A DNA stretch of 61,280 nucleotides, the filler included, from Perkinsus olseni (lineage: Eukaryota), in NCBI GenBank assembly GCA_013115125.1. It is 2 parts of 2 records of this genome, joined end to end, with 100 filler letters (N's around TTAATTAATTAA, not from the genome) between each part and the next. Parts side by side here need not be neighbours in the genome. Positions count along the whole stretch, not along the records: positions 1 to 30,636 come from JABANN010000419.1; positions 30,737 to 61,280 come from JABANN010000420.1. One strand, given 5' to 3'. Shown here piece by piece: positions 28,281 through 59,641 of this stretch. The notes under the pieces were generated by a model. The model did no database searches, was not told the DNA's origin, and saw only the letters and a program-made list of their open reading frames with translations. The position numbers and the translations under genes were made by a program. Positions within the stretch are counted from its first letter, which is position 1, and the number at the start of each line of letters is the position of its first letter.

Positions 28281-29643
28281 ATGAGCGCTCCTATCAACAG
28301 TCTCTCTTCGGACTTGGGCGTCCTGATGATAGCGGGCTGCACGATGACTGCCAGCCTCAGTCTGGTGCATTGGCTGTCCATGGACGAGAGGGCGCGGTTT
28401 AAGCGTGCCTGGACTGACTACGAGCAGGTCAGGGTCAGCCGTGGTCGCTCAGTAGATGCGCACGATTATTTTTTTCTTCAGATTCCGGCAAGAGAAGGTA
28501 TGGAAGAGGAGATGAGCGTCCTGGGTGAAGAGGACTCGAAGAGACGGCGAGGTCGGCCAAAGCCTCGGGCGCCTTTCATCGACTTCCTGCGGGGGCTCAG
28601 TCTGGCCTTTATCGTATCCTTCCACTTTATGTGGGACCTCCGTGAGTTTCACTTTCTTCCGCACGCCCCCCCGCTGGACAAGGCCGGGGGATTGCCAATA
28701 AGAAATTACCTATTTTTTATCGTCTACTTTGCCATCTCCTTCACCTCCTGCATCGTCGCCTGCCTCTACTCGCCGTACCTGGGCTATGCAGTGTGAGTGG
28801 GTGGTATCCAGACGTCCGTGAAGTACCATGGTCAGCCTTAGATACGCTCCCATGGTCACGTACTGCATCTACAGTATGTGGTGGGAGTCGCAAGTGTCGG
28901 GTGTATGTCTGATAATGATATGCCTTGGGATGTCCCAGGCGCTGGTACATCGAAATGGTGTAGTCTGGAAGGAAGTCCTCACCAGGGCCGCCAGGCTGAG
29001 CGCCCTTGCGGCACTCATCACTGCGCTCTCGTGAGAGGACTTAAGCGAGCGTCCTCTGTGTTCCGATGCTTCCTTTGGCAGGCTGTGGTTCACTCCCAAT
29101 CAGTGGGTTTACTTCGGCGCGGTGCACTGTCTCTGCCTCAACAGTCTGCTTACAGTTCCCTTTGCGAGGGTGAGTTCCTCTCCCCTACTCATTTCAGAAT
29201 TGCCATTACTTTATCTGTGCTTTAGCGACCCCAGGCGGCCCTGCTTGGCTTCCTATTCATACAGTCCTACACCATGGCCTTCGGAGCATGCCCACTCGAA
29301 GTACCGCTCGACTGGCCCACCCTTGATGTCATGCCTTGGTAGAACTCTTGTTCCCATCCGATACCGGGTTCGCACCTGCCGCCCCTTTGTAGGTTCCACA
29401 ACTTCGGTTACTGTCTACTGGGTGTGTGGCTTTACAGCAAGGGCCTCCACAAGTTGGCCTCGATCAGCGTGATACCAGGGACCCGTGTTTACTTAGAAGA
29501 CACCGTTCTCACTACATTCGGCCGACATGTGAGTCACCGGTTGCCCATGCTATGCGCCACTGTTGTTGTCTCAGTCCCTCATAATTTACCTGCTCCATCA
29601 AGGTCTACTGTTTCCAATCGTATACGGCGTCTCTCTGCTATAG
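28281..29643 (+). CDS. DUF1624 / HGSNAT-like membrane acyltransferase, copy 2
   Basis: PFIDFLRGLSLAFIVSFHFMWDL, CLGMSQAL, FGAVHCLCLNSLL, DVMPWFHNFG, FGRH|SLIIYLLHQ. Stop TAG at 29641-29643. Confidence 0.88.
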
Positions 29644-29989
29644 GCTGACATCCTTGCTTGTCGTGTTCCCTTATATTATGATAATGCAGCGGAAGTATGG
29701 TAGGGTTGTGTTGTGAGTGAGAGTAACTTGTTCGGTATGCCAGCTCGGACTGTAACGTTCTCATGTAACGAGAATTTGATCTATGCTCCAATCCACATCC
29801 TCGCTATCGCTGAGGGCTTCCTCTCTCGTCACTGCTGACAACGTCTTTTGATGGTGCTGCTCCTCTGCTCCCCGTCGTTAGCCCAGCCCGTAGTCTTAGT
29901 GTTTTGACACCTGAAGTGCTCTCAAGTCAGTTGATACCGCTTTGTATGGGAAAGAGCATTTGAGTAGTTTGTTGTAGAACTTTTTACAC

Positions 29990-30636
29990 ATGCCGTTCGC
30001 GGACTTGGAGTTCTTGGACCCCACCACATACATGGGGACAGCTGTGTGGGAGAATTTCTCCCTTCCCTCTGTCAAGTCAGCTCTCGTTCTAACAGCCCTT
30101 GGTTCGGTCATCTCCTGCGGTCTTTGTACCTTTCACTGTCTCACACGGAGAGAACGAGCAGCTCATAAGGCGGCACATGAAGGCTTCGACGAGGTGTCGA
30201 ACATTGAGAAGGGGCAGGCTGCCGCTGATGATGGTAGCGATGTGGTTGTTGGCGATGGTGGAAGGGTGGTAGCCAAACCGAGGTATCCAGCAGTGGACTA
30301 CCTCAGAGGCCTGTGTCTGATGTTCATTGTCACATTTCATTTATTGTGGGCCCTTGCCGATTTTGGTCTCCTACCCGGCTTTCCTGCGAAAGTCTCCTTC
30401 AACCTGCCCGTATCCAACTACGTCTATTTCGCTGCCTTCTATAGCGTGTCATTCACATGGGCGAATCTTCTATTCATATTCATCCACCCATACCTCTACT
30501 ATCTGATGTGAGGCTGTGCAGCTCTATCATCGCGCTATCCGTGCTTCGACCTCAGGTTCTCACTCGCTACACTACTATGCATCTACATACTGTGTTGGGA
30601 ATCGGAGATATCGGGAGTATGCCTGATAATGCTATG
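29990..30636 (+). CDS. DUF1624 / HGSNAT-like acyltransferase, copy 3 (5' part, runs into assembly gap)
   Basis: RYPAVDYLRGLCLMFIVTFHLLWALADFG. The exon after the intron (CIYILCWESEISGVCLIML) parallels copies 1-2. Confidence 0.82.
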
Positions 30637-30736
30637 NNNNNNNNNNNNNNNNNNNNNNNNNNNNNNNNNNNNNNNNNNNNTTAATTAATTAANNNNNNNN
30701 NNNNNNNNNNNNNNNNNNNNNNNNNNNNNNNNNNNN
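30637..30736. other. Assembly gap with artificial six-frame-stop linker TTAATTAATTAA
   Basis: N-run, TTAATTAATTAA (30681-30692), N-run. Confidence 0.95.
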
Positions 30737-31247
30737 TACAGCTAATGTAGAATGCTGAAGAATCATAAGGTAACAAGTTGGTACCATACTAAGTCCGCGT
30801 ACAGCAACAAAAACGTATATGCTCCAACTTTCAGCCTTATTCGCTTCCATACCGTGGAGAAAGTGGGGCCAGACTGAGAGCAATGTGGCTTCTATCACTA
30901 TCAAGTTTGCTGGCTCGAGCCCATAGATGGCGCGTATGGCTCAGTCAGTCAATCCCTATTTCTGGATCGAAACCCGCTCCTCGAGTGACCGGCGTTGCTA
31001 CGCAGTACACGGCTTCCGTCAGCAGTTGACCCTTTCTTGCGTTGTACGAGTGCATCACTCAAATCTTTCGCACTATAGTGGCATCGGTTATGCCATGTTA
31101 GCGTTGTTCACGAGGGCCGGAGCTCACTCGGAGCCTAGGAAACTCGCTGCGGCAGCGACGCTGCCGGACGGAGCATCGGAACGCGCACGTCATCGCCGAA
31201 GATATGTTGCTATACTTCCTTTGGGTATTTGACGTTGATAATCCTCT

Positions 31248-31820: not shown

Positions 31821-33084
31821 CATGGCGATGTTGGAGAATGATTCCAGTATGAATCACGGCATCCATGTTCTGGGATGGGGTTATTTTGCTCCGCACTAGA
31901 GATATAGAGTTAGCTTGCGGCCACCTCTCACGCTTTGGACAGAACGCGGTCCATCGCTTATAGAGTGGCTCTCACTGCGTGCATTCGCATGTCGAACAAG
32001 TCATGGAAGGCGTAAGCAGGGGAGTGACTCCAAGTTGATCCATTTGTTGGAGATGAGAAACTCGCTTCAGCTCGGAGACCTCAAGAGCTACCCTCCATCC
32101 AGACGACTCCTATAAAATGGTACGAAGGATTTAGGATATTGCCACTCATTGCGCGCCGATCATCTTATGCATGCGTGCATAGCTAATACGCCCGCCCCGC
32201 CCAAATAGATCCAAGTAGAAGACTTTACACTCCTCCTCGCCTTGCGTTGACTATGAGCCACAACGGAGAAGCAACAGCTATCAAGGATGATGGACCGACA
32301 TAGCGGCTATGTGCCTCAGCTCCAGAGCTCGAAGTCAACGAACGACGGTGTAAGGATGTCACCCGCCAGGCCGCTCGAAGCAGCTGATAAGGGGGGGGGG
32401 GGTCAAAACCACCCTACCAGGGGCTGTATATTGTTGCATGCACTGCCAGTGTCGGTGCTTGGCCCCACACACGGGCGCGTTCCATTCGAAAATAGCACAC
32501 TAGAAATCAGTACCTGAATGGAGTACCCGATCCCCAAGAGTATCGGATTATTCACCGCCGGTCTGTGTGATTGTGCAGGCCAACAACTACGGAACCTTGA
32601 CGCTAATGAACATCTTTATCAGGGCTGTTGATGGTTGAGTCGCAGGATTTCACTAACCACTCACCGCTTGGTGACAGTCTGCCTCGGGCGGAGACAGACC
32701 GTGCCTTCGCCAACGGGATGGTTCTCTATCTACAAGCGTAACAATAAGGGACGGCAAGTTCGACAAATCGTTCTGGATCGGTCAGGTGGCCAGCTCGGAC
32801 ACGTGGGTACTGTCTTTAATATGCATTCCAGTAGACACAGTAGAGTTCACTCAGTGAACTCCACTGTGTCTACTGGTGAACTAACTGCAGTGAACTCCAC
32901 TGGCGGGATCCAAAAACACTAGTAAGCTGCGCGTGCGTGCGGCTAGTGCCACCCGTAACTGGCTAATGCGCAACTGGTTCTCATCGTGGGGCACCAGAGG
33001 CTGGAGCTCGATTCACGCTGCGGTGTGACTCATCCATTTGGACGTCAATGGGGCAATCTCCTCGACAACAACGTGGTCATAACG

Positions 33085-33823
33085 ATGTGTCTTCTCTTCG
33101 TCGGCCTCCTCTTGGTCTTCCTCGTGAAAGCTGAGGACGTTGCATTCATCACCTCGGAGTCGCTACCTAAGTAGGTTTCTCGACGGAGCACGACGCCATT
33201 CAATCCTATCATTCAATCCTTTTAGGTTGACCAACCTGTCAGTCGCAGCCTACCCCACTCCTACCGGAAGTGAGCTTCGCTCCCGCTCGCCAGTACACTG
33301 CTGGTAGTGTGTTTCGCTTCCGCTCCTCTCCCCGCTGCAGGCTCATACAAGAAACCAACTGGCCTGTGCTATTACACGCCACCACAAGTCTACGGTTGCT
33401 CCTGTTACGACTCGGTGCCCGTTGTGTTGACCTATGTAAGCGGATCGTACTCACAGTAAAGACTGCGAATGTCCACAGTTCTTCTGCGTCGATGCTTCGT
33501 TGTCTCAGGCGGGGAATCCCATAGACGCTGTCTGTGCTCCCGCTGGCACCTATGCCGCCGATTGCCCCTATGGCCCGCCTGGGACTTTCCCGCAGTGTAT
33601 TAAGGGAGTATGCCTCCTCAGCTGCGAAAAGGTGAGCCCACTGGGGTCCTCACTGCCAAGGACCACCCGTGCTGGAAGAACTCGATGAGCATCGTGTACG
33701 CGTCGAAGGTTAATCGATACTCACTTTGCCGTTCAGGATTACACCTGTCCATGGCCGGGAAGGTGCGAAGCTACTACCGACTCAGGCGATCTGTGCTTCT
33801 TCCCACAATGGGCCGGGCAGTGA
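33085..33823 (+). CDS. Small secreted Cys-rich protein, family copy 1 (5 exons)
   Basis: MCLLFVGLLLVFLVKA signal; spliced YKKPTGLCYYTPPQVYGCSCYD...DAVCAP...DCPYGPPGTFPQCIKGVCLLSCEK|DYTCPWPGRCE...CFFPQWAGQ*. Confidence 0.85.
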
Positions 33824-34776
33824 CCCACTCAGAGAGCTCCCGAAGCCCGGCGAGTCTCGACAGCGATGAGCTGTTGAGGCTACAAGGAAAAGCGGGGATC
33901 TACTCTCCGTGTTTGGTTCAACTCCTACCTCTACCTGGTAGAGTCTACTATTTTAAATGCTCCATTTGATACTCCCAACTTCTCCACATCACTCTTTCAT
34001 TTGTCGATTGCTTGAGCACCTTCATTATCTCTGGCGTCTTTCATTACTTGACGAAGGAGAAGAATCAAATGAGTGTCCGTAATTGTGCCGTTAGCCTTGC
34101 TTGATAGGGTCACTTTCTACGTACGATGAGGGGGCTATGGCTAGGGGGTTCGAGTACTATTTCCCAGCCGGTCTCCCGCCGGTAACTGGCTCTCCTGCTC
34201 TCCGCAAGAGTCTCCACGAGGCTGCCCGCGGTCTGTCAAGAGTCTCAGGCTGGGCCTCCCAGTCGCCCTACACGGGGAGGAGCGTCGACGATGTGTCAAT
34301 GCTCGTCGGCTCACGGTTCTCCGATAACCGACTGAGTGAGGAAGGCCCGATTGATACCAGGAGCATAGATGAACGGGTGGATAATGCCAGCTCATGAAAT
34401 GCTCGTCACCCCGCCCGTAGTCGTTGTCTTCTATGCCTACTTATAGTAGGCTACTACGCTCGGGTCAGCTTTGAAGACTTCAAAGCATGAGCATAAGCTA
34501 CGCTTACGTTATCGGGTAACCCATCAGCATGTGCAGTGCGTTCGACGGGCTGAATCGTAGTTTTTGGTATCAGGCCGATTCCGTTGACGTCATAGCAGCT
34601 GCTCATTCTCGTGGGAACCCTTAGCTAATCCGAATGTCCGGCGGCTACAGCTGCCTTGAGACTTTCGTGCGCAATGCAAACCCGTTCACAAACATCATCA
34701 TGATAAACTTTATGTCATTCTTGCGGAAGTGATATCTCATTTTCTCTTACATGCTGATAAGGAGCGATCTGTACTC

Positions 34777-35661
34777 TTAAAGGGCACGATAAATCCTGAT
34801 CTCGCCTTGCTCCGTCGCATAGATGCGAAATTTTTCTGCATCCGGACCGTGCGTAGTCTCCGCTCCGGTGGCTTCAGGATGGTCGTTAGTCGGGAAGATC
34901 TCTTCGAGTGAGAGTTCCCGAAAGGGAGAGGCCGGTCGAGAGAGTGACTCGAGAGTTATCCTGTATTCAGCGTTTCTTTTCCGGCTCAGTGATGGGGATT
35001 CCCTCCGTGCTTGACTGGAAGCCTGAGGAGCTCCGCGTTGACGAGCCCTCTGATTAGCGGTGGGGCCTCGTCCCAGGGTCGGTGGTTGTCGATCTCGAAC
35101 TGCCTGGCCGGTAGCCTCATCTCGCACCATAGTGAAGAAGTTGAAGTAGGATTCATCGTATCCGGATGTTGTCCTCTTCCCGTTGTGAAAGCCCATAGTT
35201 ACGGTATCGTCTTTGTTCTGGCATATGAGAGTGTTGCCGACCTTGGCGTTGTGGAAATCTTTAGGGAAGGCCTTGTTTACCTCCTTCATCTGCTTGGTGG
35301 GGTGCATGGTTAGAGAATGGGCCTCGCTACCAGACATCCTCCAACAGCTTCTCATGAGCTCCTCAGTGATCGGATTGAATTTCCGAGAGCTTCTCTGCGC
35401 TAGGATATTCTGGACAGGATAGGAGATGCCTGCTAGATCAGTGAAGCTGAGCGCGACAACGCGGGTCGTTTTAAGGGTTCCCTTCTCGATAGTAACCCGC
35501 AGATCTTTGAGGTCGGTTGTCTTCTTATCCGAGTCGGCGACCTTGTAGTGACCCGGTTCTAACAGAGGTGGTATGGGGTAGTTGACCGTGGCGGCGACAA
35601 GGGAGAGCAGTGCAGCCTCCGCGAGCATGGCCAGAAAGGTGTTAAAGATGACGCCAGGCAT
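34777..35661 (-). CDS. Intronless hypothetical secreted protein
   Basis: Long ORF. ATG at 35661 gives a hydrophobic leader MPGVIFNTFLAMLAEAALLSLVAA followed by PLLEPGHYK. No family recognised. Confidence 0.65.
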   Translation of the reverse strand: MPGVIFNTFLAMLAEAALLSLVAATVNYPIPPLLEPGHYKVADSDKKTTDLKDLRVTIEKGTLKTTRVVALSFTDLAGISYPVQNILAQRSSRKFNPITEELMRSCWRMSGSEAHSLTMHPTKQMKEVNKAFPKDFHNAKVGNTLICQNKDDTVTMGFHNGKRTTSGYDESYFNFFTMVRDEATGQAVRDRQPPTLGRGPTANQRARQRGAPQASSQARRESPSLSRKRNAEYRITLESLSRPASPFRELSLEEIFPTNDHPEATGAETTHGPDAEKFRIYATEQGEIRIYRAL

Positions 35662-36461
35662 GGAGTAGCTTCGTGGAAAACTGCAGTCACAACAACTACG
35701 AAGGCTGGAAATCGGGATGAGACACCGCTCGTTTCGCTCGTCTTCAATCGATTCCGCTAAGTCGGGCGGCATCCACTGGTGCTCAAAACGTCCACCCGTA
35801 GCGCGGGCTCAAGACAAATCTTGGCCGTCTTTCGGCTGAAGATCGACGACTTCGTCCAATGACTCCTTCCTAACGACACGTCAGCGGATCTGCTCTCGGC
35901 ATTCAGAATCTCAATTTGAGATGGCATCCGCGCATCGTCCGCTTCCATCTGTCTGCAGAGGCGAGGGCCTCCTTTCCGAAGACTCTTGGCTTTTGGAAGC
36001 GATTCGGTGCTCTCCGTGTCCGATAGAGTCTACTCATTACCTGCAAGGATGCCGGATCACCGTGGAGATTGGATCATCCGCATGAAACACATACCCGACA
36101 GCCGACAGCGGCGGCTGTCACGGCGCCGGTGTCTCCCATCAACAAGCGCAACAAACTAGGAAAAAGACTTTTAGGCATGGCTACACCTGGAGGACGCCTT
36201 GGGCATAATAATCGTGAGCTTGGCTTGACGCCGCCGTCTTCCTCAGTAAACAAGACCAAGTACAGCCCCGGACTATGCCAATTTGCAGATGGTGCATGCG
36301 TACAGCAGGCTCCACCGATAAGGGCGCCATTGTGAGCGTCACGAGTCGTGACGCTCACAGTTCGTGACTCACGACTGAATTGCCATTTCGCTCATTAACT
36401 TCACGACGGAAAGTGACGCTTCACGCTTGTCCTGCTCGGTTGAAGTGGACATTCTTAAACA

Positions 36462-37187
36462 ATGATTCGCATCCTCGTCAAGCTACTCATCATGTTTTAC
36501 GTTCATGCTGAGAGCCACGTGCATATCCTTTCGGACCGCTTCCTCGAGTAAAACTCGAGATTTCAAGCCAATGAGTCGTTCTGAATTCGTTCTTCAGGCT
36601 GGCGGATTCAGCTGTCGGAGGTCGTCCCTCGCTACTAGCAGGTAAGCGCTACTCCCCCTCCCCGCCCCAAGTTGTGGCCTTTGCCTACCCCTGTTGTAGG
36701 GCCTTACGAGAAGCCGACGGGCCACTGCTTCTATGACCCGCCTGATTTAAAGGCTCACGGCTGCCTCTGTAATGCCTCTGAACCAATCCAGATCGTCGAG
36801 GTGAGTTGGTCATTTCTCGAAGCTGGCCCATGAGCATTAGCACCTTCTTCAGGGCAGAAGTACTGTCGACGCTGTCTGTGCGCCAACGCCTTGTTCTGAA
36901 TCAATCGAGTGCCCAGCGGGTCCTCGCGGCTCTCACCCGGTGTGCGCTCTCGGGAGTTGCTTTCTCAGCTGTCACAAAGTAATTTTCCCCGTCTACTCGC
37001 TCTATACCATCTTTTCCGATAATCGCCGTCTCGGCTCGTTGACTCAACGCGGTAGTCGAAGCGCATGCTGAGGATGATTCGAATCGAATCATTCGATATA
37101 TCCGTTCTCCTTCAGAATGACGACTGTCCTGAGCGTGGCGCATGCAAAGTCATCCACAAGATGGGGTTATGCTTCTTCCCATCATAG
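36462..37187 (+). CDS. Small secreted Cys-rich protein, family copy 2
   Basis: MIRILVKLLIMFYVHA; YEKPTGHCFYDPP..HGCLCN..DAVCAPTPCSESIECPAGPRGSHPVCALGSCFLSCHK|NDDCPERGAC..CFFPS*. Same intron positions as copy 1. Confidence 0.85.
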
Positions 37188-37656
37188 AATGGGGAATGCC
37201 TTTTTCAGAACACCTCATCAGCGCAGCGGTGGGACTGAACAGCGGCGAGCCATCAGTGGTAAAGTTTGATGCGACTCTTTAGAATCATCGTACTCTTTCC
37301 TCTAAATGGTAGAGTCTCCAATTCTCTGGTCGTTTCATCATAACATTTACCTTTTCACATTCATCCGACTTAAGTCCTCATACTTTCCCATTATATTCAA
37401 CTCGAGCGATAAGTTGTTCTTATTAACCTTACCATAGCTATTACTGAACTTGATTTCTCACTATGCTTGATATTAGACATGGTATCCATAAGGTTTCCTC
37501 TCGCCTTTCGTGTTCCCTGACCTTAAAGTTTGAGTGATCTCAGAATAACCGTTGTCGCAAAGGTCGCGACCTAAGAGCTGACTGTCGCTAGCTCTTATTC
37601 GAGAGCGCGGGGAGAAGAGCTGCGTGCACGCTCCAGGGTTCCCTCGGTCTTGTTCA

Positions 37657-38275
37657 ATGCGTATCGCTCATCTCTTACCGCTCGTCTACACCTGTCTTTC
37701 TGATGACAGCATTGCAGATTCCGAGGCGTAAGCTTGATGAGGTTGACGTTCATAAGTCCACATCCTTCCGCTCTGCAGGTCCGCCGAGTTCAGCGCTGCT
37801 GGTTACCCTGTGCCGGTCGGTGGTAAGCTCCTTGCCTGACTGATGGAAGCGATCACGTCTCGTTGTCTTAGGGGCCTATCAAAAACCCGTCGGTCTCTGC
37901 ACTGGGTTTTACTATCAGATCAGTGGTTGCTACTGCGACCACATGTCGGAGCCCGTCACCCTCACTAACGTAAATCTCACATAAGATGGAGCCGTCAATC
38001 ATTTGGTTGATTCAGGCTGGGTATTCGGTCGGAGCTATCTGTGCTCCGAAGTACTGTTCATCACAATTCGACTGCCCTGCCGGACCTCATGGCACAGTTC
38101 AAGTGTGTGCCAAAGGGAAATGCCACTTGGGCTGCCACAAGGTGAGCACTAGCCTGCCCCCGAGGCGTTCGAGAGTGATGATTGATTTCAGGATTACAAC
38201 TGTCCTTGGCCAGCCCGCTGCGAGCATGCACTTGAGCTTGGCGATGTTTGCTTCTACCCGCAGTGGCAAGACTGA
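37657..38275 (+). CDS. Small secreted Cys-rich protein, family copy 3
   Basis: MRIAHLLPLVYTCLS; YQKPVGLC..SGCYCD..GAICAPKYCSSQFDCPAGPHGTVQVCAKGKCHLGCHK|DYNCPWPARCE..CFYPQWQD*. Confidence 0.88.
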
Positions 38276-38695
38276 AGATCACCTTTCCTTACCGTTCATT
38301 CTTCGTGACGAGGGTTCTGTCAACTTCCGCAAATTGAGCCTCAGAGTTCTCTAATACCTGTTTTTCCGGCAATGCTGTCTAACAGATCCATGAGGTCTTT
38401 TCGATACCCTTTCCCATCCACGACCATCGCCGGCAGGCTCTATAACACTGCCGAGTGTTTTGGGCCTTTTGGCAAGCTCCAGAGGATATCTCGTCCCTGG
38501 CAGCCATGCCATTTTTTCTCTAGATTTATTTTAGCTTCTCTCCATCCGTGCTCACACCCTTCGGTTAGAGTATACTCAATGGTTCCTGCTGCTTGCTCCT
38601 CGCTTTTCTCTCCATAGGTTTCAGCACCCCGTCGCCGAGTGCAAATACCTTTTACAAAGGACGGATCCTCACGTGCAGGTTTTTTCTCCATCACC

Positions 38696-39453
38696 ATGTT
38701 CCGGCTCATCACACTAGCCTCGGTTATGATCGGAACTGCCATTGTTTCTGCCCTATGGCCTATTGAGTAATCACCCCTTTGTCTCAACTCCCACTATACT
38801 TCTTTCTTAAGTTACGTTCCGTACCCTTCCTGGAGGATAAGCTGGCGCGATGGATGTGAGTGGGCTGGATGCTATTCTCTCTTGTGTGACCGATATCTCA
38901 GCTGACTATCGCCAGCCGAAAGGCCTATGTACCTACGTTAATGGCGTTACAACAGGCTGCTACTGCAAGAACAAGAACACTGAGCCCATTGTGCACCTGA
39001 ATGTGAGTTCACCATGCACCACCAACGCCGTAAAGGTTGTCCCGCTCCCGTGCTGGGAGCCTGCTGATGGTTAAATGCTCGAAGGCACTGACTTCCACGC
39101 TCGATATACTTTGTTTACTTGTATCCCTGATTGGAACAGCGGAGCGCGACAAATGATAATGTGGAAATGGTTCAGTTGTCTCTCGAATTTTTCTCGTTCA
39201 GGCCGGATATGCTACAGGAGCAGTTTGTGCTCCAAAGCGATCGTTCCTCTGTCCATCCACCCCGGGTCTTCTCGACCACGCGGTGCTCGCTGACGGCCGC
39301 TGTTATACTAGTTGTTCTGGAGTAGGAACACAAAATCGGGGTTTTTCGCATTTGTGTATCTCGTTTCAGACCAGGAAGTGCCCCTGGCCGAGTAGATGTG
39401 AGCTTGTTGCCGTCCTCGGAGAAGTCTGCTTCTATCCACAGTGGATCAAGTGA
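38696..39453 (+). CDS. Small secreted Cys-rich protein, family copy 4
   Basis: MFRLITLASVMIGTAIVSA; YRQPKGLC..TGCYCK..GAVCAPKRSFLCP..GRCYTSCSG|TRKCPWPSRCE..CFYPQWIK*. Confidence 0.85.
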
Positions 39454-48600: not shown

Positions 48601-50967
48601 GAAGATAGTCGTCGAATCGGCGAGGCAGCTGAGAGCGCAGACCCACGCAGCCAGTGGTAAGGCCTCCTTACCGCTGTAAACCTCCTTTTTGAATTCGACT
48701 TATTGTAGTCTGTGGACGCTGCAATGAGTGTCTGATGCGAGCTAGCAGCGACCCGGATACCAACAAGGCGGCCAGCGCGAACCACAGTGACATGGACAGG
48801 CTTGTGTGGGCCCTCTCGTTGTAGCACGCCTCCGCTACTCCGAATTTTCAGAGCGTGTCAGAACTGCGGGCTAACTGTGCATTGGCGCTGCTTCCTGCGA
48901 CCCGGCCTGCCGCCTCTCAACGTTCTTGATTATGATGATTCTAAGGTGCTCGCATCGCTCCGCCGAAATCTTTCTAATCCTTGGATCAGTTAACATCAGC
49001 GATGTATCACTGCCCGTACCCACTGGCCGCTAGGAGTCAGGATGGCACTTTCCTTTGCGAACGTTGCAAGTATGTTAAAGAATTCGGCGACCTGCAGGAG
49101 CAATCTGACGTGAAAACCGACGCAGCAGAAGAACCCCCGGGGGAAGAGACGACTGCCGTGGACGCAGTTCAGGTAAGTGGCGCTCGGGAGGCAGTGCACG
49201 ACCGGGCAGTCGCTTCTTTGTATCGAACTCCTTCACCGAAGAGTTCGAAGGCTTCGCAATTCCGTAACGCTATCCACATGAGGCGATTCAGGAAAAGCCG
49301 CATGACTCATCGCTCAGGCCCAGGAGGCCGGTCGTACAGGGTCGGTTAAATTTTCTGACACCTACTGCATCCTATGCCAGCAGCTAGGAGGCCTCCTCGT
49401 CCGAGTTGAGAACACTGAGGAGCGTCAGTGGGACCCGCACGGCTACTGGGTATCGCCGGGCTGTCGGCGATGTTGCGAGCAAACGCTCAGGTCCACCCGC
49501 GCTGCGTTTACTGGCTACTGCCAACTCAATCACTCAGCCTCAATATGACGACTACTCCAATTGACATAAATTCTCATGCACTGATAAAGTCGATACCGAA
49601 AGATGTAGAGCAGCGAAGGGCATGTGCATGCGTGCAGTCGTAACCCGACAGGCACACTTCAGTCTGTGCTGGATATGCGGCCAGCGCTCTGGATGCACTG
49701 TAAAATGTGCGAAGGCCGGTTGCCTGTAGGAATCAGTGCCGATCAATACCTGATCTATTGTGCGCTCTCTGTTTAGCCGACGCTTTCATGTCTCCTGTGG
49801 TTGGTACACTGGCTGTCACTTCATCATAAAAAGTTCGTCTGGTGTGGTAAGAAATTTCTGCACGAAAGCAGTGGGTATATATAACTTCCCAAGGTCCTCG
49901 CGGGGTCAGCCTGTCGTCCGAGAAGCGGTGGCTCCGCTGCAGCTGGACAAAATCCATCCATCGACAAGCAAGTTCTCGAAGCTCTGCGGGACGGTAGGCT
50001 GTGTACTACCGGCTTTCCTCCATCTCCCACTGCAGAGCGGGCGCCGCTCAAACGCTACGCCTACTGCTCGAGCCATCGGCCGCCGAGGCTGACCGGAAGG
50101 AAAATCTCTAACGCGGTCGGCGGGGCTGCCGTGGATGAGCCCAGGATGCTACCCCTGCCACACTGTAGGGTGATCTGAACGAACTCAGCCCTCATAATCC
50201 CCGTTCAGATGAGAGCCCCCTGCACATGCAGTACGCTAACGTTGTGCGAGCACGCGTGGTAAGTTGGGTGTCCTTCTCCGTTCCCTTATAATACAGACCC
50301 TTCAGCGAGGCGTTCGCCGGTGGTTTCAACGGGCTTCTTGTTGTTTTTAGAATAGCACCAATCTGTTCGTGCCGATCAATCCAGAGGCTGGCATCGCAGC
50401 AGATCAGCGCAAGAAGCGGAAGCTCTCGTCCAACGCCACACTACGAACACCGAAGAGTGAGTGCGGCCGCGTAACCGCACGTGGCAGAGTCTTGTTCTTG
50501 CAGAGTCGGCCAAACGAAAAGCGAAGCGACGCAAGGTGAAGCGAGACTCTCAGGAGTCCTCTACACCAGTCCTCGCTGGCAGCATCATCACCCGCGATGG
50601 GATCAGTACGCTTAAACCGGAGAACTCTTATTGAGAACGGTTCGTCTCAGCTGAACTCGTCGATGTGGATGACTGGGAGGGGTCCTGTCCCAAGTGTGGC
50701 ATCCCTTGGGACCCCAACGATCCAGGGCAGCTGATAGGCTGTGATGAGGTGCGTATCGGAGGGCTCGTGGCTTATGACTGTATTGCTGATCAGTGCGATG
50801 AGTGGTACCATATGGCCTGTGTGGGCCTTATATCAGCGCCCGAGGGGAAATGGTAAGGTGCTGCCCCCGCTCCAACATGAGGAGTTCGGTGGTGGTTCAG
50901 GTTCTGTCCGAATTGTTCCAAAGCGAAGACGCCTTCAAGGAAGCGATCACAAGGCCACGCACGTTAA
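45668..50967 (+). CDS. PHD-finger chromatin reader with two PZP (PHD-zinc knuckle-ePHD) modules and a C-terminal PHD, BRPF/JADE/NTO1-like
   Basis: CSICGDGDVDDDNAILICDGCHFAAHQKCYGV..WFCRTC; WAHVKCAVWI; VIYCPRH; second module CQNCGLTVHWRC, VHPRCVYWLLP, CAGYAASA-adjacent CAKAGC/FHVSCG/FCTKA segments; final CPKCG..LIGCDECDEWYHMACVGL..EGKWFCPNC. Stop TAA at 50965-50967. The start is tentative. Confidence 0.88.
47341..47375 (-). promoter_or_regulatory. Intronic tRNA T-arm / B-box-like element
   Basis: Minus strand reads AGGTCGCAGGTTCGATCCCCGGCACCGGCG, inside intron 47300-47377. Confidence 0.65.
47827..47861 (+). promoter_or_regulatory. Intronic tRNA T-arm / B-box-like element followed by T7
   Basis: AGGGTCCCGGGTTCGATCCCCGGTGGAG-TTTTTTT fills most of the 50-nt intron 47814-47863. 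Perfect 5-bp T-stem. Confidence 0.7.
47996..48017 (+). promoter_or_regulatory. Intronic tRNA T-arm / B-box-like element
   Basis: AGATCGCAGGTTCGATCCCGGC in the 46-nt intron 47981-48026. Confidence 0.65.
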
Positions 50968-51678
50968 TCTTTTGCACTATCAGCGACTGCAACGTCATAT
51001 TACTAATATCATTGTTATTGCAGCGGTTAGACGAGAAAAGAGCTTGTTGTGTTGTTAAATCGAAGAGATCATCGTCGCAATCAGAGACACAATGTTATCG
51101 CGCGAGGAACCTATTCTTTGGGCCTGTCTCTATGCTGCTACGAACATGAGTACCCGAGGCGAATCCTTCATCAAGGTGCTCGAGAGAAAAGTTAGGCGTA
51201 GAACCTCCGAATTGCCCGAATAACTCACCCCACGGTACGAGGCCGTATGTTCCTGGCACATCGGCTACGACCCTAACTAAGACTAAGCTGGCGATGGCTT
51301 AAGACGAACACATACACCGGACGTATTACGGATAGTGATCATCCACGCGACCATCGATCAATGATCGGGGCGTTGGAAGACCCAATAGAGCTGCCAATTG
51401 ACGACATGAACACGAGGCAATGCTGTCTTCTAAGAAGCCGCGCCTTTAAATTTCCGAGTAATTATCGTGGTACTTATCGATTACCGCTATTTATCGTGTG
51501 AATGGACACAGTAAACGTCGTGGAACTACCAATACAGCCAACAACAACAACATCGCAGGAAAACTCGAGGGCCAAGCATCTCTATGAATGATGAATAATT
51601 GTCTCAATCGTATAGTAGCAAACAGTACACGTATGCCACTCTCAGAAGGACCCCATCACCACAAAGGACAGCGAATGC

Positions 51679-52291
51679 TTAGTTAGGGCAGTCCCTGGCG
51701 AAGTGACCGGGCTGGCCGCACTTGAAGCAGTTCCTTCCCTCGGCACCTGAAATCACACGACATGAGATGCAACTCAGACAGCACAACACAAGGCATTAAG
51801 CGTGCGAAGGTCATTTATTACCACGTCCACGGGGAGCACGATCGCTCTCAGGCCTGGTATCCTCGTTGGGGCAGTCACGGGCGAGATGACCGGTCTGGCC
51901 GCAACGGAAGCAGGCACGGGTATCAGGGGCGGTGCAATCCCTAATGGCAGAAGACACTTACGTGACTCAGGACCTATACCGTGCTTTATTACCTAGCGAA
52001 ATGACCGACCTGACCGCACTTGAAGCAGGGCCTCTGGTTGGTCTGCTCATTGGGGCAGTCACGAGCAAGATGATCGGGCTTGCCGCAGTTGTAACAGTTC
52101 ATGGGGCGGCGACCAGCAGGCTGAAAAATTACGATACACACTCATACCACACCATTCCCAACACTTACGCGAGAGCTGGAGGCCTGAGGGCAGTCCCTGG
52201 CGAAGTGACCGGGCTCGTTGCAGATGAAGCAAGTAGAGGAAGAAACGCGATCGGTGGCGGTAGTGGTGGGAGTGGCGGCAGTATCAGCCAT
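51679..52291 (-). CDS. CNBP/GIS2/UMSBP-like nucleic-acid-binding protein with five CCHC zinc knuckles (4 exons)
   Basis: CFICNEPGHFARDC, CYNCGKPDHLARDC, CFKCGQVGHFARDC, CFRCGQTGHLARDC, CFKCGQPGHFARDC. Confidence 0.93.
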
Positions 52292-52448
52292 TATTTTAGG
52301 AAACGTATGATAGCTAGACCCTGAAGGGAGTAGTTGCATGCGATTCACTCAATGGCCTCTTAGGACGCAGCTCGACATAGCGCCCGTTAACAATGAAGGC
52401 CGGCAGCCGAATCGATCACCAGGGCGAGCGCAAACTCGAGTATCTTGT

Positions 52449-52514
52449 GCTCCCACTTTAGCCTATGCGGAGCGAAGGGAGGTCGTAGGTTCGATCCCTG
52501 GCGGGGGCTCTTTT
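52449..52514 (+). other. Truncated tRNA-like / B-box element in the region upstream of the CNBP-like gene
   Basis: GCTCCC...GGAGGTCGTAGGTTCGATCCCTGGCGGGGGC. Acceptor-like pairing of the ends and a T-loop, but no full D or anticodon arm. Confidence 0.55.
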
Positions 52515-52658
52515 CTCACGCGAAAATTCCGACTGATGAATGAAAGTCAACATAGTGGAAGAAACTCATCACTAACGAGGCAATTGTATCAGAATGAATT
52601 CACACAGCACTGATAATGGTACACTGTGACGGTGGCCCAAAGGGCGGTGAGGGTAGCG

Positions 52659-52856
52659 TCAGAACCGCAGCGAGTGCATCTCTCGTTTCAACAGGGTCTC
52701 CATCATCTCCAACGGTAGCACATCTCCGCCTTGTGTAGTTGGAACGTAGCAGTCTCTCGCTCGAAGTAGCGCTTGAACGGACTCTTCGAGGACCCGAGCG
52801 CCACGAAGAACAGTCGACCGATCGCTTGACGCAAGCATGCGTAAGGGGTTGATATC

Positions 52857-52890
<34 letters not shown>

Positions 52891-53570
52891 AACCCGAGAG
52901 GAACGCCCAAGATGTAAGACACCATACAGGTTAGATGAGCCAGATACAAAACAGCCACGCTTGGGAACTGCTCTGACGACTGAGACAGGGCGGCGATATC
53001 GCCGTTAGAGGTCATAGGGAAGCCCCTGATGGTCCGATACCGACCACTGCAGTTCTCTATAGGGTAGAGGTCGTTGGTGATCTCCTTGAGCATCACTAAG
53101 CGAATATAATAACGGCAAAACACTAAACTGAGCAGCATCGTTCTCTGCGTCTTCTCAGCGCCCACCATGGGCTGTATTTTCACACGATAGCCCAAAGACT
53201 CCAGTTGTCGACTGGCGACCTTCACAACACTAGTAGGGCACTCCTCCTTCTGAAGTAGCACTCTTGCAAGCTTCCCTTTCAAACACTGAGCCTTCTTATT
53301 CTCCCGTCCAATGGCGAAGCGAAGGTCGTCTCGTCGACGCCTCAACTCCTCCAACTTTCTCATGCGCACACGCCGGGGGTCTCCAGTAATAAGATCTTCC
53401 ATCTTCCTCATAACCGCATTGGTCCTGCCGACGACAGCGACGTATTGACGATAGAACTCCCAAGTCGCCTCCACTTGAGCTATCAACGCGTCTATGGCGA
53501 TGCTGCGGATCTCCGGAAAGGGAAGGACGTCGTCATCGGGGAGATCGTCAGACGATGAAGACGAGGCCAT
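52659..53570 (-). CDS. UVRAG/Vps38/Atg14-like protein, intronless
   Basis: Coiled-coil region, then LKEITNDLYPIE...RTIRGFPM...VAVLYLAHLTCMVSYILGVPL, typical of the Atg14/UVRAG family. A poly-Ser tract is encoded by (CAG)n. Confidence 0.7.
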
Positions 53571-54935
53571 GAGGGAAGGGTGTGCTCGCAAATAACATAC
53601 CACTACTACGATTCAGCGAAAGGCTTCCTTCAAAAAATTCTCACAAAACCGAGCTTGGTCTCAAGATTAGTTCGTGATGACACTCCCTTATTGAGTATAA
53701 ACCCAACACCACCACGGAAGCCCAACCAATTCTTTCAAATGATGATGATGAAACGACTGACTCGTCAAAAGCGATAGTAGCAGTAATAGGTTAACCGGAC
53801 TTTCTCATGACGCCCTAGTCTTGACGGCTAGAGGTGCCAGAAAACTCTTCCTGCGACGAAACAGAAGGCTGACAGTAACACAACCGCTACTACGCAGCCT
53901 GAGAGCAGACGAACTTCAACATATTAACTTTATCGAGTAACGGAGCTACTTCCCATCGATCCACCTGATATGAGTGGGCGAGTACAGAAAGGAATGCTAC
54001 TGGTAACGATCGTGAAGCGAAATACAACAGGCACATTACTTCACATTAATCGGCGACCTTCACGAGAGAAAAAAAACAATGCCAAAGCAACAGCATCAGC
54101 AACAACAGCAGCAGCCGACAACAGCCGCACTAATAGTAGTACAGCAAGAAACGAGACGACCGTCAACCAACAAGAGAGACTCCTGTACATCGATGATGAT
54201 GCCGCTATAATGCAAACGGTGATCCTGGCCCACCGCCGTCTTTGGTGATGAAACCACAACACAGTTGATAATGTTACGATACTTCAAATGCAGCACTGGC
54301 AAGGCGCGAGCCAAACTGGGATGGAAACGCTCATGTGGTTCGCCCAAAGTGGCTCGACGCTGAGTCCAGTATACGAGAGAATCAACGGTCGTTACTACCG
54401 GCATTAGCCATGGTATAAAATTACTATTTCTACTACTACTACCGGCCGGCCTCTCGACGAACGACGAAATTGAACCCTTTATTGAAAATTACCGCGCGCC
54501 ACGAAATTAGACAACTCCGGTGGTGACACGATCGTTGCCCTAGGAGAGATCGCAGGCAAACAGCCAGAACTGCATCCCATAGCGATCAACCGATCAGGCG
54601 GAGACAAACGAGGTTCGTGAATACCAGCAAGAGGGCAGCCATCGGGCGAACGAGAGAAGGAAAACGTCACACGACCTTCCCCTAAGTTCGAACGCCCCAT
54701 GGCAGCCGCGGCCAGCCGATGGCACTTAACACAGTTAACGAGAGGCAGACGAGAATAGTACAGAAGCGGAAGCGACGACCACGGTCGTAGCCGCCACTAG
54801 GATACAATAAATGAGCCATGTTACATCTGATACTTATTAGAATTGGGGCCTCGACACTGGGGTAGGGAAGCGCCTGTTACGAATGGCGGACTTCATTTTA
54901 CGACGACTGCTGATGATGATTATGATGAAAGGGAG

Positions 54936-57900
54936 TTAGGCCGAGTGATTGCGGCTGCCGGCTTCCATGGTCACATACCAAGCATTGGACGTGGTTCGAC
55001 GCAGGGATGAGAGGAAGCCTCGCTGTTGTTGGTGTGACGCGACGTGATGATTGTCAGTTGGGGAGCGGCCGGCCAGGTACGATGGGGAGGAAATGGACGA
55101 CTCTCGCGGTACGTTGCCGAGGTGCTCCGAGGCGACGGAATCTGCACGCACGCACAATAATGAGAATCCATGGGGTCTAACTCGCGTATCATTCCTCTTG
55201 TCAAATACCATGGTGACCTCAACCTAGGAGCGCAGGTAGCACGAGCTAAGATTCACGCATCACCCTAGGGTACCATCATCATCGACTAACGGGGGCCTCT
55301 CGACCAAAGGAGGCCTTTGTCGGGTGATTAATCTTAACGAACTCATTCTCGCTCGGAAAATGGCCATTACCATACCACACCTTGACCAATTCGCCCGATC
55401 TCCCAACCGCAAGCTACCTTTTGCATCGTCGACATCGAAGCTCGCTGGCAACTTAACAGAGGGCACACACGATAGCGAGAATAGTGTCCGACCGACCTGA
55501 TCGATACCACTACACCTCACATCGACCTGGCCGCTCCCCTACTTGAATTGCTGTAGGAGCGCCATCAGAGGCCAGAGGGACCTCACCGCCCCGAACTGCG
55601 ACCAGTGTGCCGAACTTGGACATGAGATCCTGAGTGATTGAAACTAGAAGATACCTTCAGAAAGAAGCTCGCGTCGATTGAATTTCGTGGCGCGCGAAAT
55701 TGTGCTGATTTGCTTGTCTCTCACCACCTGAATCCACACGTGGCCGTTTTCATAGCGGATACTGGCGTGTTTACGAGAGATGGAAACCTGAGACAGATGA
55801 ATGGCAACCGATCCAAAAAAGAAGAAAAACCCAGAATAAGAGCACTCATACCGCACTCGGAAGATTCCGTCCTGAAAGAACCCCGGATGAAAGATTCCAC
55901 CGCTCATCTCTGAACCCGCTCTAAGACCAGAATGATGAGTCCAACAATTGTCATGATTCTAGCATCGTGAAAAATGCATTTCTCGCGCGCCACAAAATTG
56001 TCAACAACTGCAAAATTGCAACTTACATCAGTAATCCTAACCTGACTCTCATGGCCCCTGCCGAGGATGACCGGTGTGTTGTCGGCAAGGCTGATGATAT
56101 GCAGGCCCGATGGAGTTAGTGAAGATGTCGAGGACATCGAAGACGGGTCTGAGCATTACCATCATCGACCGCCGCCCAACGTGTAACCGCTATCTGCGGC
56201 AATTCCACCAAGGGCGACTTCGAACGTCCGAAGGGCGAGGTATGTTCGGAAAAAACATCTCGCATTTTTGACTCTCTCGTAGCCCACAACCACGGCAGTA
56301 AAACTCCTCGCTCCAACTCGCACACAGCGTCAAGGAGCCGTTGAGACGATGCAGAATCCTTCCATCCACTGTTTTACTAGCGGGAACAACGATTGTCAAT
56401 CCGACCAATTTTCGGAAGTCGTTGATCGTGATCGGCCCGAGCATTTCAAGATTTCCGGAGAACCTCATCTATGGCATCCTACGCAAACGATTACGCCCGA
56501 GTGAATGGTTCCGACCAACATTCGTCAGCTCAGCTCTTCTTAGGAATCCCCTCCGAAGTGACCTCTCCTCATTACCAGAATTTTCCTCGTTGCTGGCGAG
56601 CGACTCCAAGACAATGATCGGCGCGCGGAGTTGAGGTACCTCCACCAGAGTAGTGAGACTATCAGAGCCGGGCAGCCGTATCTAAGGCGAGTAGAGATGC
56701 TTTTTTGGCGAGACCTCGCTCGACCCCAAGATACTATCCCTAGTCTTCCTACCACTCCATTCGGAACATTATGAATATCTTTTTGTATCATTGAAGTGCT
56801 CAGTTCTACGTCGAACCACCGATGGACGAGATCACAGATCCAAATTAAGCCTTGACATTTTCGTTCCGAACACTGTTCGAAAACATTCCAAAACCGTCTC
56901 GAGACAGTCAAGCCGGCAAGATTGTCTGCCGGGTGGTCCATCCTGGAGACTGACTGAATGGCACGGTTTCTCACTAAAACTGCAGGCACGAAGCGCCCGT
57001 ATGAACAAGCCAGGAGAAATACGGGAGAAAGGGTTCCAGAAATGACCACCACCAGCCCTCCGTACATAAGTGGGATACAGTTGTTTGCAAAGCTCACAGG
57101 AGAGCTGCTTATAGAAAAAGTGACAAGTGGCTAGTGCGTCGGTCTCATCGGGGAGCTCTAGACGACCGTTGATCCACCGCCGTAAACAGGACAGATGGAC
57201 GTATCTTGAGGATAGCTGGCACGATACAGGTTAACCTACAACACGCATGCTCACCGGATACTTCCACTGCAGTTGCATGGCGCAATCATCGGGTCATCAT
57301 CCTCAGCACCTGACCATGAGATCCTCCTAGACAATAACCACGGGTAGCTAGGCAAAGCGACAGTCCTCTCTCGGGTGCTCATAGCATGGCAACAGTCGAC
57401 GATTTTGTGGCGCGCGACATCGGATTCGACCGGCCCCTCTTCCCTTCAAAGCCAGCACTACCAAGAGGCGAGGTGATTCACAACAATCTTCAGGGAAACA
57501 GGACGTTGCCCCCACGTTATCACAAATATCGGGGAAAAAACTTTTCGAGCATTGCCCGCCGCTTGAGGACCCGCAGCGTCTTGATCAACCCTTCTGCTTA
57601 CCTTCCATCAGACATATCTTACACACTAGCTTCTTAGCCTCCTCTGTACCACCACCGACGGCCGTGACGAACGAGGGATCTGCAGGAAGGGGACGTTGGC
57701 ACATGAGAAGGTCGGTTGGCAGGCCCAGATTGCACGGGAGAATCAACCAAGAGCCACCAGTGTTTCCATCTTACTCGATGCAGTGCCACTACTAGAGAGT
57801 TGAATTTCGCCTTGGTTAATTGTTCTGGACGGACGACGAGGGACGACGCTATCGCTGCCGCCGGACGACGATCGCGAACCTGCGGTAACCGTCATTCTCG

Positions 57901-59641
57901 CGCGCCACAAAAATAAGGTCGCACTTCTATGGAATGAACGGCTCAACTGGCGCTTCCTCTGACGGTAGGTTCGTGCCAAGTCTAGCGACGGCCACTGAAA
58001 TAACAGGAGTCGGGAGGTCCCGGGTTCGAACCCCGGCGAGGACGTACAGCATCCTCCTCATCTTCGCTGCCCATACACGTCTCTGCCGAGTCCGAGCGGC
58101 AGGCCATCGAAGACGCATCGGTGGCATCATCAGCATCATCCAGAATTATCTGGCAACGAGCTGTAAAATAAAAGAGAGAATTTTTTCACAGAAAAAGTTG
58201 AGCAATGATACAGCAAGTTCGAAAGTCCCAAGTTTGTTGTGCTCTTCGTGAGAGACTTCTGTAGTTGCAGCAAAGTTCAATCATGGAGGGGACGAGCTAA
58301 CACGCGGGCCAACAAATTTTTCTCAGCTTCAAGTCCTAGGAAGCATACCACACTACTTGATACGGGCAGCAGCGGTCATCAGAGTGTACGGCAACGAAGA
58401 GCTCACCTGTTTGACCCTCATTTGATATCGGCCGAGTTTGATGAGATCACCTTCTTGCAAGCAGTACCCTCCGGGAGCAGCATGACGAACAACCACCCAG
58501 GAGTGTAGCTCATCAGACGATCCGACTGAGGACCGACAGTCAGATGGCGTAACCGATAACATGATCGCTCCTCTAGCCGATGATACCGGGTTCGAATCTT
58601 CCGCCCCGCACCTCACCTGGAGCCGCCCTATGCACCGTCTTAGCCACGAAGTCATCACCGGCCTCGTTCCTGAAAGCATTTCAAGTGCCTTCGAGTCAAG
58701 GAGATTCCAAAACGAGAAATGCATACAGAAGGAGAAACCAGAGTATTTTCCGTGTATCATGAGATTCTAAGCGGCAACTATACAAAATTGGATCGAAATT
58801 CTGTGAGAAATCTCCCATCAGAGTATCCAAAAAACCTGCTCATCTCGATTGCAGGATTGTTACGCTAATCAACTTTCGCAATTTCCAAACCCCGAACACC
58901 TTCTCTGCATTTCACTCAGATTTTCACGGCTAAGGATTTGCCAAGCAAACGGGAGGTGTTTTTGTCCAGAGTTGTGATGATAGGTTGGGCCGACAAAGCA
59001 ATTCTTAGACCTATTCAGTCCCATTTTCGGGCCGCCAGAAACCATGCTTGTTCTCGTGCGGCTCTCGCGTAACGCAGTCATATTATGACTTTTTCGAGAG
59101 CTTTCTGTATCATGACCGCGATAATAAAGAAAAGGCTCGAGGGCTCAGGCCGCTTCCCGACAGCACCTTGTCAACCGCAAGAGAGGCATCCGACTATCCA
59201 GTTGAGTGCTCTCCGGATCAACCAACGCCACTTCGGATTTGGTAGGATCGGCCACAGCTGTGTCAGCACGAACAAACTTAGCGCCTGGGAAGAGACACTT
59301 CACGACGCGGCCGTGCCGATGGACACTCACCTGCGGAGTCCGCCGGAATGGTGAACCTATTGTAAGTGACATGCCTGAAAAAATGACAAGTCCACGGCTG
59401 CTGAAGAGCTTAGGTAAACTGGCTACCTCGATTCGTAATCGAAGAGGTCATGGGAGTCCCTCATCCAGGTGGTTGCAACTACATCTACGCAGTTCTCGTG
59501 AACTCGTGAGGCACCATCACAGGATCCGTCGCAAGTGAGCTCAGATTGAACACGGTCGACTCGGTTAGCTGGTGGCTGGTAATAGGCGGATGACGAAGTA
59601 GTAGCCGTTTGTTGTTGTTGTTGTTGTTGTTGTTGTTGCAT
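54936..59641 (-). CDS. FHA + RING-CH (RINGv) + FHA domain protein, alveolate type, multi-exon
   Basis: PolyQ start, TWMRDSHDLFDYE, WVVVR..LQEGDLIKLGRYQMRVKQI, CKICLMEG..PMIAPCNCSGSIRYVHLSCLRRWI..CELCK, LGRGHESQVRITDVSISRKHASI..DLMSKFGTLV, IQVGRT. The 3' end is approximate. Confidence 0.92.
58011..58043 (+). promoter_or_regulatory. Intronic tRNA T-arm / B-box-like element, antisense to host gene
   Basis: CGGGAGGTCCCGGGTTCGAACCCCGGCGAGGAC fills most of the 53-nt intron 57995-58047. Perfect T-stem. Confidence 0.72.
58538..58610 (+). pseudogene. Decayed tRNA-like sequence filling an intron, antisense to host gene
   Basis: A-box/D-arm-like ATGGCGTAACCGATAAC, an imperfect anticodon-like stem ATCG..CGAT and B-box GGGTTCGAATC, within the 91-nt intron 58526-58616. 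Confidence 0.5.

Follow-up and report, generated by a model that had tools for sequence, protein, structure and literature searches.

Seven copies of a 30-nucleotide (nt) element derived from the 3′ portion of a tRNA gene were found in a 61,280-nt stretch of the genome of Perkinsus olseni (assembly GCA_013115125.1), referred to below as the window. Perkinsus is a parasite of oysters and clams, and the window displays a eukaryotic gene structure that is dense in introns. Six of the copies reside in short spliceosomal introns, and the seventh lies upstream of a CNBP-like (CCHC zinc-knuckle) gene, much as an initial reading of the sequence alone (hereafter the sequence-only reading) had proposed. 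The explanation that we favour, with about even confidence, is that the elements are non-functional fragments of tRNA genes, which would have been captured from defective pseudo-tRNA copies and tolerated because they are spliced out.

Anatomy of the tRNA fragments

Each element corresponds to tRNA positions 44-73, anchored on the T-loop. The seven copies are as follows:

47341-47370, minus strand: copy A, antisense to its host, in intron 47300-47377 (78 nt) of an Nto1/PHD-finger gene
47828-47857, plus strand: copy B, sense, in intron 47814-47863 (50 nt); perfect T-stem
47996-48025, plus strand: copy C, sense, in intron 47981-48026 (46 nt); the element ends 1 nt from the 3′ junction
58015-58044, plus strand: copy D, antisense, in intron 57995-58047 (53 nt) of a minus-strand FHA-RING gene; perfect T-stem, near-palindromic
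58581-58610, plus strand: copy E, antisense, in intron 58526-58616 (91 nt) of the FHA-RING gene; broken T-stem
29359-29388, plus strand: copy F, sense, degenerate (T-loop TTCGCAC), in putative intron 29339-29392 (54 nt)
52480-52509, plus strand: copy I, outside any cis-intron, approximately 160-190 nt upstream of the spliced-leader acceptor (~52322) of the zinc-knuckle gene

The order of parts is common to all seven copies: a variable loop (mostly AGGTC-like), a 5-nt stem strand, a TTCGAWY loop, a second 5-nt stem strand, a 7-nt acceptor strand and the discriminator. The sequence-only reading had described the variable loop and the T-arm, and the acceptor strand can now be added to them. The tRNA derivation of the pieces is thereby upheld, together with the T-runs that trail two of the copies, i.e., copy B, where the T-run leads into the terminal AG of the intron, and copy I (CTTTTCT). 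The T-stem had been reported as broken in several copies, and this is the case in five of the seven. Watson-Crick pairs number five in B and in D, four in C, three in A, three (plus one GU pair) in I, one (plus two GU pairs) in E and one (plus one GU pair) in F. The full 5-bp stem is thus confined to B and D, and the copies as a set lack the paired stem of a functional tRNA gene. CCA follows position 73 in none of the seven copies. The B-box core GGTTCGA is exact in six copies, and the longer GGTTCGAWYC occurs at six of the seven loci; copy F has lost A58 of the box.

None of the seven copies is a whole tRNA, and a complete cloverleaf is absent throughout. ARAGORN detected no tRNA genes in the window, either at its default setting or at a 95% threshold; at 85% it made nine weak calls, two of which terminate on copies B and D yet extend into exons. 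The A-box pattern has three exact matches in the window, all of them elsewhere and none with a D-arm context, and no A box, D-arm or 5′ tRNA half was found upstream of any copy, in agreement with the earlier statement that the 5′ half is missing. A permuted or split tRNA was also considered and rejected, as neither a complementary 5′ acceptor strand nor a D-arm occurs downstream of any copy.

Rfam yielded no tRNA match in the whole window and nothing tRNA-like in intron E, and the searches with the window, copy B and intron E produced no match to the copies at the gathering score. Copy B gave weak matches, restricted to the T-arm, to tRNA-like families such as mascRNA (15 bits, E=0.5 in a 75-nt search). 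This alignment, and the perfect 5-bp T-arms that can form in B and D, would suit a role at the RNA level, whereby the T-arm hairpin would be recognised by tRNA-processing or tRNA-modifying enzymes or would serve as a source of small RNAs resembling tRNA fragments. Such a role is nevertheless very improbable, given the broken stems of the other five copies, the antisense orientation of half of the intronic copies in their transcripts and the lack of an Rfam match at the gathering score.

The abundance of the motif was assessed over the whole window. The pattern GGTTCGANNC occurs 11 times (2.13 expected), and GGTTCGAWYC has seven matches which represent six loci, the palindromic locus being counted on both strands (0.60 expected). 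The 19-nt consensus of the sequence-only reading, with up to three mismatches allowed, has seven matches (0.37 expected); five loci match without mismatch, and the remaining two come from reading the reverse strand at copies C and F. For all three patterns, the observed count was reached in none of 100 shuffles. A profile hidden Markov model of the seven copies recovers all seven at E values of 4e-5 to 4e-3 (i.e., E≤0.004), and no other locus in the window scores better than E=2.1, reverse-strand echoes excepted. A chance resemblance of GC-rich intron sequence to a T-arm is thus barely conceivable and, for the extended motif, is refuted: lone GGTTCGA heptamers do arise (eight of the 15 matches lie beyond the seven elements, one of them exonic at 47425), but the likeness of the copies extends to the variable loop and the acceptor strand. 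It should be borne in mind that the copies were found via the GGTTCGA core, such that conservation of the core is partly a matter of ascertainment, and that several of the statistics given here and below are post hoc and based on seven copies.

Additional, more decayed copies were sought among the annotated introns. The pentamer GTTCG occurs 22 times in 48 introns, compared to 11.1 expected (22 was reached by one of 300 shuffles), but the excess is unconvincing once the known copies are removed. Extra GTTCGA sites in the introns of the FHA-RING gene do not have the appearance of a T-arm. Intron 47554-47605 contains CCGGTTCGCCC, which is not scored by the copy profile.

Introns that carry the elements

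All six introns of the sequence-only reading hold, five of them by virtue of RNA contigs, orthologous proteins or continuity of the open reading frame (ORF), and the sixth, that of copy F, by paralogue alignment. The joint 58525>58617, which removes intron E, is present in RNA contigs of three runs with minus-strand GT..AG ends and is absent in the DNA run. Among the 15 joints listed, of 83 in total, those of A-D do not appear; contig-length arithmetic was used instead and supports introns A and D. For intron A, the P. olseni protein contains the junction GRSA|DPILPC, and the length of the RNA contig (283) equals that expected upon removal of the intron (283). Introns B and C are bridged by orthologues with the continuous sequences AAW|VIYCP and HDKF|LAPFD, respectively. 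Removal of intron D is needed for a continuous 404-residue ORF, the resulting junction EDA|WPSL is found in the proteins of three species, and two RNA contigs have lengths (2768, and 1546 of 2968) that agree with the spliced form only. In the case of intron F, the support consists of GT..AG ends, a frame-consistent split Trp codon and the alignment with the paralogue. Extra DNA depth in the bins that bear the copies sums contigs of other loci and is no measure of copy number.

Copy I occupies a different setting, i.e., intergenic or outron DNA. After it comes CTTTTCTCAC, which on the strand of the minus-strand zinc-knuckle gene reads GTGAG. The layout on that strand is like that of copy E, with GTGAG, a few bases and then the antisense element.

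The annotated introns number 48 (32 in the Nto1-like gene, 13 in the FHA-RING gene and three in the zinc-knuckle gene) and lie in a 13.9-kb interval (45224-59166), of which they make up 35% (4846 nt). The median of the short introns in this interval is 48 nt, and most introns span 35-54 nt. As had been suggested, the element constitutes half or more of the intron in many cases (30 of 46-54 nt in B, C, D and F), and both orientations occur, with three sense and three antisense copies among the six.

The proposed enrichment in introns over background, on the other hand, fails locally. Five of the six copies in the annotated interval are intronic, compared to an intron share of approximately 68% of its non-coding DNA, as computed from rough exon totals (P=0.39). 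Relative to all DNA the value is P=0.024, which results from purifying selection on exons. The agreement between the intronic fraction of the copies and the intron share of non-coding DNA fits the capture of fragments wherever they can be tolerated.

Origin of the fragments

Comparison of the copies with one another reveals at least three tRNA-like lineages. Copies A and C, which lie 640 nt apart in one gene and in opposite orientation, have 16 identical nt in common, including the stem-breaking GCAGG. Copies E and F, 29 kb apart in the window and in different genes and orientations, are alike in 23 of 26 nt (88%), and their common stretch includes the non-pairing 3′ strand CTNCC. Copies B and D are alike in 20 of 21 bases but differ in their acceptor strands. 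The common T-stem defects in the A/C and E/F pairs point to descent from defective pseudo-tRNA copies, rather than to independent captures of working tRNAs, and the lack of CCA together with the T-runs of B and I indicates that the source was gene or primary-transcript sequence. The ratio of observed to expected CpG in the introns is 0.99, and CpG decay is consequently uninformative as a clock.

The likeness between copies ends after 14-26 nt, the trailers differ, and no common body, tail or terminal inverted repeat was found when 50 introns were compared with the window. This argues against a classical introner and against a tRNA-derived short interspersed element (SINE), the latter having been one of the original suggestions. 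Like SINEs, the copies represent tRNA-related sequence that carries a polymerase III (Pol III) B box and is scattered through non-coding DNA, introns included; unlike SINEs, they lack an A box, a 5′ tRNA part and an A-rich end, share neither a body nor a tail and, at ~30 nt, are far below the size of any SINE. Retroposition via relic spliced leaders was also examined and discarded (one match with two mismatches, compared to 2.16 expected).

In the reading that we favour, a fragment extending roughly from tRNA position 38-44 to position 73, plus a few trailer bases, would have come to rest in segments that cis- or trans-splicing excludes from the mRNA. We infer both the manner of capture and the lack of function. 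The fragments may have entered as short patches, whether through the repair of a break (as filler DNA or by templated synthesis) or through reverse transcription of Pol III primary transcripts; a likeness limited to 14-26 nt fits patches rather than a defined transposon. Some copies would then have acted as templates for others, as with A and C within one gene and with E and F at a distance of 29 kb. Over-long introns may have been trimmed back to the preferred size, whereby only the cases that spared the element would be visible today (survivorship). Tolerance would follow if an intron of ~48 nt is constrained at its splice signals only. In the sense orientation, the pyrimidine-rich tRNA 3′ end and the T-run would suit the pyrimidine tract and AG of the 3′ splice region, and in the antisense orientation the complement of the tRNA 3′ end would adjoin GTRNG; this fit may account for the abutment of that end on a junction. 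A second high-copy word, described in the last section, also fills part of some micro-introns, as would be expected if introns absorb abundant sequence.

Donors would be abundant, since Perkinsus contains hundreds of near-identical tRNA genes: the pertinent part of the report on P. marinus gives 349 tRNA-Leu and 116 tRNA-Gly genes that are more than 95% identical to their consensus (Kojima & Jurka 2013, PMC3706591). The amplified genes of that account resemble the present copies in being multicopy tRNA-gene sequence with a B box, and differ in that, in the part concerned, they are whole tRNA genes with Dada transposons inserted there, rather than intronic fragments. Like tRNA pseudogene fragments and other tRNA-derived repeats, the present copies are degenerate and descended from other copies. 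Unlike dispersed tRNA pseudogenes, they comprise the last ~30-35 nt only, are situated inside spliceosomal introns of 46-91 nt and fill most of four of them. No published account of tRNA-like pieces in Perkinsus introns was found among titles, abstract openings and passages of selected papers.

Filler or templated insertions at repaired double-strand breaks form another class for comparison. In these, brief stretches of sequence that is abundant or strongly transcribed are copied into the break, with ragged ends and no fixed orientation, and such inserts can be spliced out if usable GT..AG flanks are present; introns of organellar or captured-DNA origin represent a related class. No microhomology or duplication signature of break repair could be shown for the Perkinsus copies, and a tRNA 3′ end regularly placed beside a junction is not known from filler insertions.

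Several observations weigh against simple capture. First, six of the seven copies lie within 23% of the window (P=8e-4), and element-bearing introns amount to five of 48 in the cluster, compared to one of approximately 100-155 elsewhere. The latter figure, for the first 45 kb, is a rough estimate in view of the likely false calls of the de novo intron predictor, which recovered 26 of 39 known short introns and placed ~5-12 sites, probably false, per 5 kb on gene-free strands. Because of this clustering, random capture throughout the genome is insufficient without local copying. Second, the introns of B, C, D and F are of ordinary size (46-54 nt) despite the 30-nt element, and trimming or replacement is therefore required; the introns of A (78 nt) and E (91 nt) exceed the 48-nt median by about one element length. 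Third, in five of the six intronic copies, the tRNA 3′ end and the junction that it faces are separated by 1-6 nt (P=0.004 under uniform placement, post hoc). The five comprise all three sense copies, where the junction is the 3′ one, and two of the three antisense copies, where it is the 5′ one (3 nt away in D and 6 nt in E). Such adjacency is not predicted by random insertion and trimming, unless compatibility with splicing filters the outcomes. Finally, the perfect T-arms of B and D and the GGTTCGA core of six copies could reflect selection, subject to the ascertainment mentioned above.

The second and third of these points would be explained if the introns were born with the elements, an alternative that we consider possible but unlikely. 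An insert in an exon, ending in the 3′ part of a tRNA, would have been spliced from the start, in introner-like fashion. One splice site would have come from its trailer, as T-run plus AG in sense inserts and as the complementary GTGAG or GTA in antisense ones. The 16-24 nt left beside the element in B, C, D and F are too few for a prior intron, given that most introns here span 35-54 nt. The T-run of B, which leads into the terminal AG, matches the local acceptor consensus, and copy I displays the E-like arrangement of GTGAG and antisense element in intergenic DNA. The occurrence of both orientations is likewise in line with transposon-type introners.

Copy F, however, provides a case to the contrary. 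Its intron is in the same position as intron 27101-27152 (52 nt) of a tandem paralogue, which is devoid of the element. The paralogues are old: their exons are 56-75% identical, and the identity is 44% for the element intron pair and 28% for the preceding intron pair. Since the position is common to both genes and copy F is 88% identical to copy E, the element probably entered or overwrote an existing intron, without lengthening it (54 versus 52 nt). The suggestion that tRNA fragments seed introns is thereby weakened for this copy. The case argues against intron birth as a general rule, and it indicates that junction-adjacent placement can arise via colonisation. Furthermore, the introns of A and E resemble an ordinary intron plus an insert, the common sequence is 14-26 nt rather than a whole intron, neither target-site duplications nor terminal repeats were seen, and the flanks of the splice sites contain no common proto-splice motif.

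The same features separate the copies from known introners, such as those of Micromonas, Aureococcus, fungi, dinoflagellates and Amoebophrya. What they have in common with these systems is a repeat that recurs, in either orientation, across numerous short introns in genes unrelated to one another, and whose ends lie near the junctions. Introner copies are alike over the whole intron, often with direct or inverted terminal repeats; the Perkinsus introns, when 50 of them were compared with the window, are alike in the T-arm block only and differ at their ends, and one host intron is probably older than its element. The passages on Perkinsus in a study of Amoebophrya introners (PMC7789003) concern genome metrics and metabolism, and not introners.

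The clustering and the constancy of the core would also be accounted for if the elements were extra-TFIIIC (ETC) sites, i.e., selected B-boxes bound by TFIIIC, with or without Pol III, that organise chromatin, insulate or modulate the passage of polymerase II, introns being merely the place where such sites fit in a compact genome. We regard this as quite unlikely. Like the ETC sites of yeasts and mammals, the copies have a B box that stands alone, with neither an A box nor a tRNA body, and this holds at six of the seven loci. The exact core in six copies contrasts with variable stems and acceptor strands, and orientation appears to be indifferent. In addition, a second motif that resembles a protein-binding site occurs in introns of the same gene. 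Conservation of the core, on the other hand, is largely ascertainment, the core being common to all tRNAs, and copy F is without A58 of the box. The common defects outside the box imply descent by copying rather than convergence. Unlike ETC sites, the Perkinsus copies retain the variable loop and acceptor strand with copy-specific defects, as expected of relics by descent, and are located within transcribed introns; gene bodies that are transcribed are not where ETC sites are best known.

A broader proposal, which we advance tentatively and regard as improbable, is that tRNA 3′ portions or Pol III transcripts are a regular raw material that creates or overwrites thousands of ~50-nt Perkinsus introns, and that their B-boxes may secondarily recruit TFIIIC. 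The 3′ end would be inserted at the future splice junction, with the T-run serving as the pyrimidine tract or the complement adjoining the 5′ site, in the manner of an introner without a defined transposon. Where new intron sequence comes from is a long-standing question for which few clear donors are available. In the present case, tRNA genes can be recognised as the class of donor, the 3′ end of the element is aligned with the junctions, and the introns concerned are close to the minimum length. If this were true genome-wide, Perkinsus would represent a tractable case of intron content written by captured fragments of Pol III genes. If the elements are plain debris, they still matter for annotation, as tRNA pseudogene calls inside genes, and mark intron turnover.

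Host genes and other features of the window

The genes in the annotated interval are as follows:

45224-50964, plus strand: Nto1/PHD-finger gene, with at least 32 introns in 5.7 kb (median 47 nt) and exons of ~100 nt
55142-59166, minus strand: FHA-RING gene, with micro-introns of 45-95 nt plus seven long introns of 239-497 nt
~52322, minus strand: spliced-leader acceptor of the highly expressed CCHC zinc-knuckle gene, at the loose end of an RNA contig

The Nto1-like gene has protein matches in P. olseni and P. chesapeaki, and it is syntenic with the FHA-RING gene on one P. chesapeaki contig. Protein matches place the window in Perkinsus, closest to P. olseni. A conserved exon (47378-47553) is skipped by the P. 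olseni database model P0003 and included by P0002 and P0004. A metagenome scan with the P. olseni Nto1 protein returned one distant locus, restricted to the C-terminal PHD domain. One exon of the FHA-RING gene shows 100% identity to P. olseni, with values of 93% for P. chesapeaki and 91% for P. marinus. At least one more intron is implied near 55633-55712 in this gene by orthologues and contig arithmetic. Two of its long introns (56120-56605 and 56652-57095) are also covered internally by RNA contigs of one run, which may represent retained or alternative transcripts or a nested gene. The RNA contig of the zinc-knuckle gene carries 10 extra letters past 52322, the reverse complement of which matches the 3′ part of the spliced leader PmaSL1, as given in PMC3101222. 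The same source reports that 69.2% of 104 Perkinsus genes bear introns, mostly of less than 100 bp.

The second repeated word, GCGCCACRAAA, occurs within TCGCGCGCCAC(A/G)AAA(T)T and has six exact copies. Eight copies are found when up to one mismatch is allowed (1.84 expected), all of them at 48.4-57.9 kb. The exact copies are located at:

48489-48499: GCGCCACRAAA
54496-54506: GCGCCACRAAA
55683-55693, minus strand: GCGCCACRAAA
55987-55997: GCGCCACRAAA
57403-57413, minus strand: GCGCCACRAAA
57902-57912: GCGCCACRAAA

Three copies lie in introns of the FHA-RING gene, and one forms part of an 18-nt stretch of the 45-nt intron 57880-57924 that is 100% identical to 55980-55997. DNA contigs branch exactly at 48482/48501, 54491/54509 and 55681, which identifies the word as a high-copy genomic one. 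It resembles a protein-binding site, possibly an E2F-like one.

Tandem arrays of diverged paralogous genes occupy 26800-31000 and 33500-44500. The former includes two paralogues, at 26884 and 29113, that are separated by 2229 nt; another family, with six or seven copies at intervals of 1.2-3.3 kb, extends over 33505-44261, and identity among the last of these copies is 77-88% over 114-166 nt. Near-perfect hairpins are present at 44921-44983 (31-nt arms and a 1-nt loop), 32828-32876 (24-nt arms) and 42810-42856, and their matches to Rfam miRNA families are weak and at chance level. Three runs of N total 184 bases (listed at 21925-22020 and 30637-30736); one set is located within a 61-nt palindrome, possibly an artefact of the assembly. 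Repeats of 32 nt lie on both sides of an N gap at 21771-22166. Coding-like tandem repeats with units of 24 or 27 nt occur at 5444-5698, and the RNA contigs as well as the DNA contigs are interrupted by a (CTG)n run at 52850-52897.

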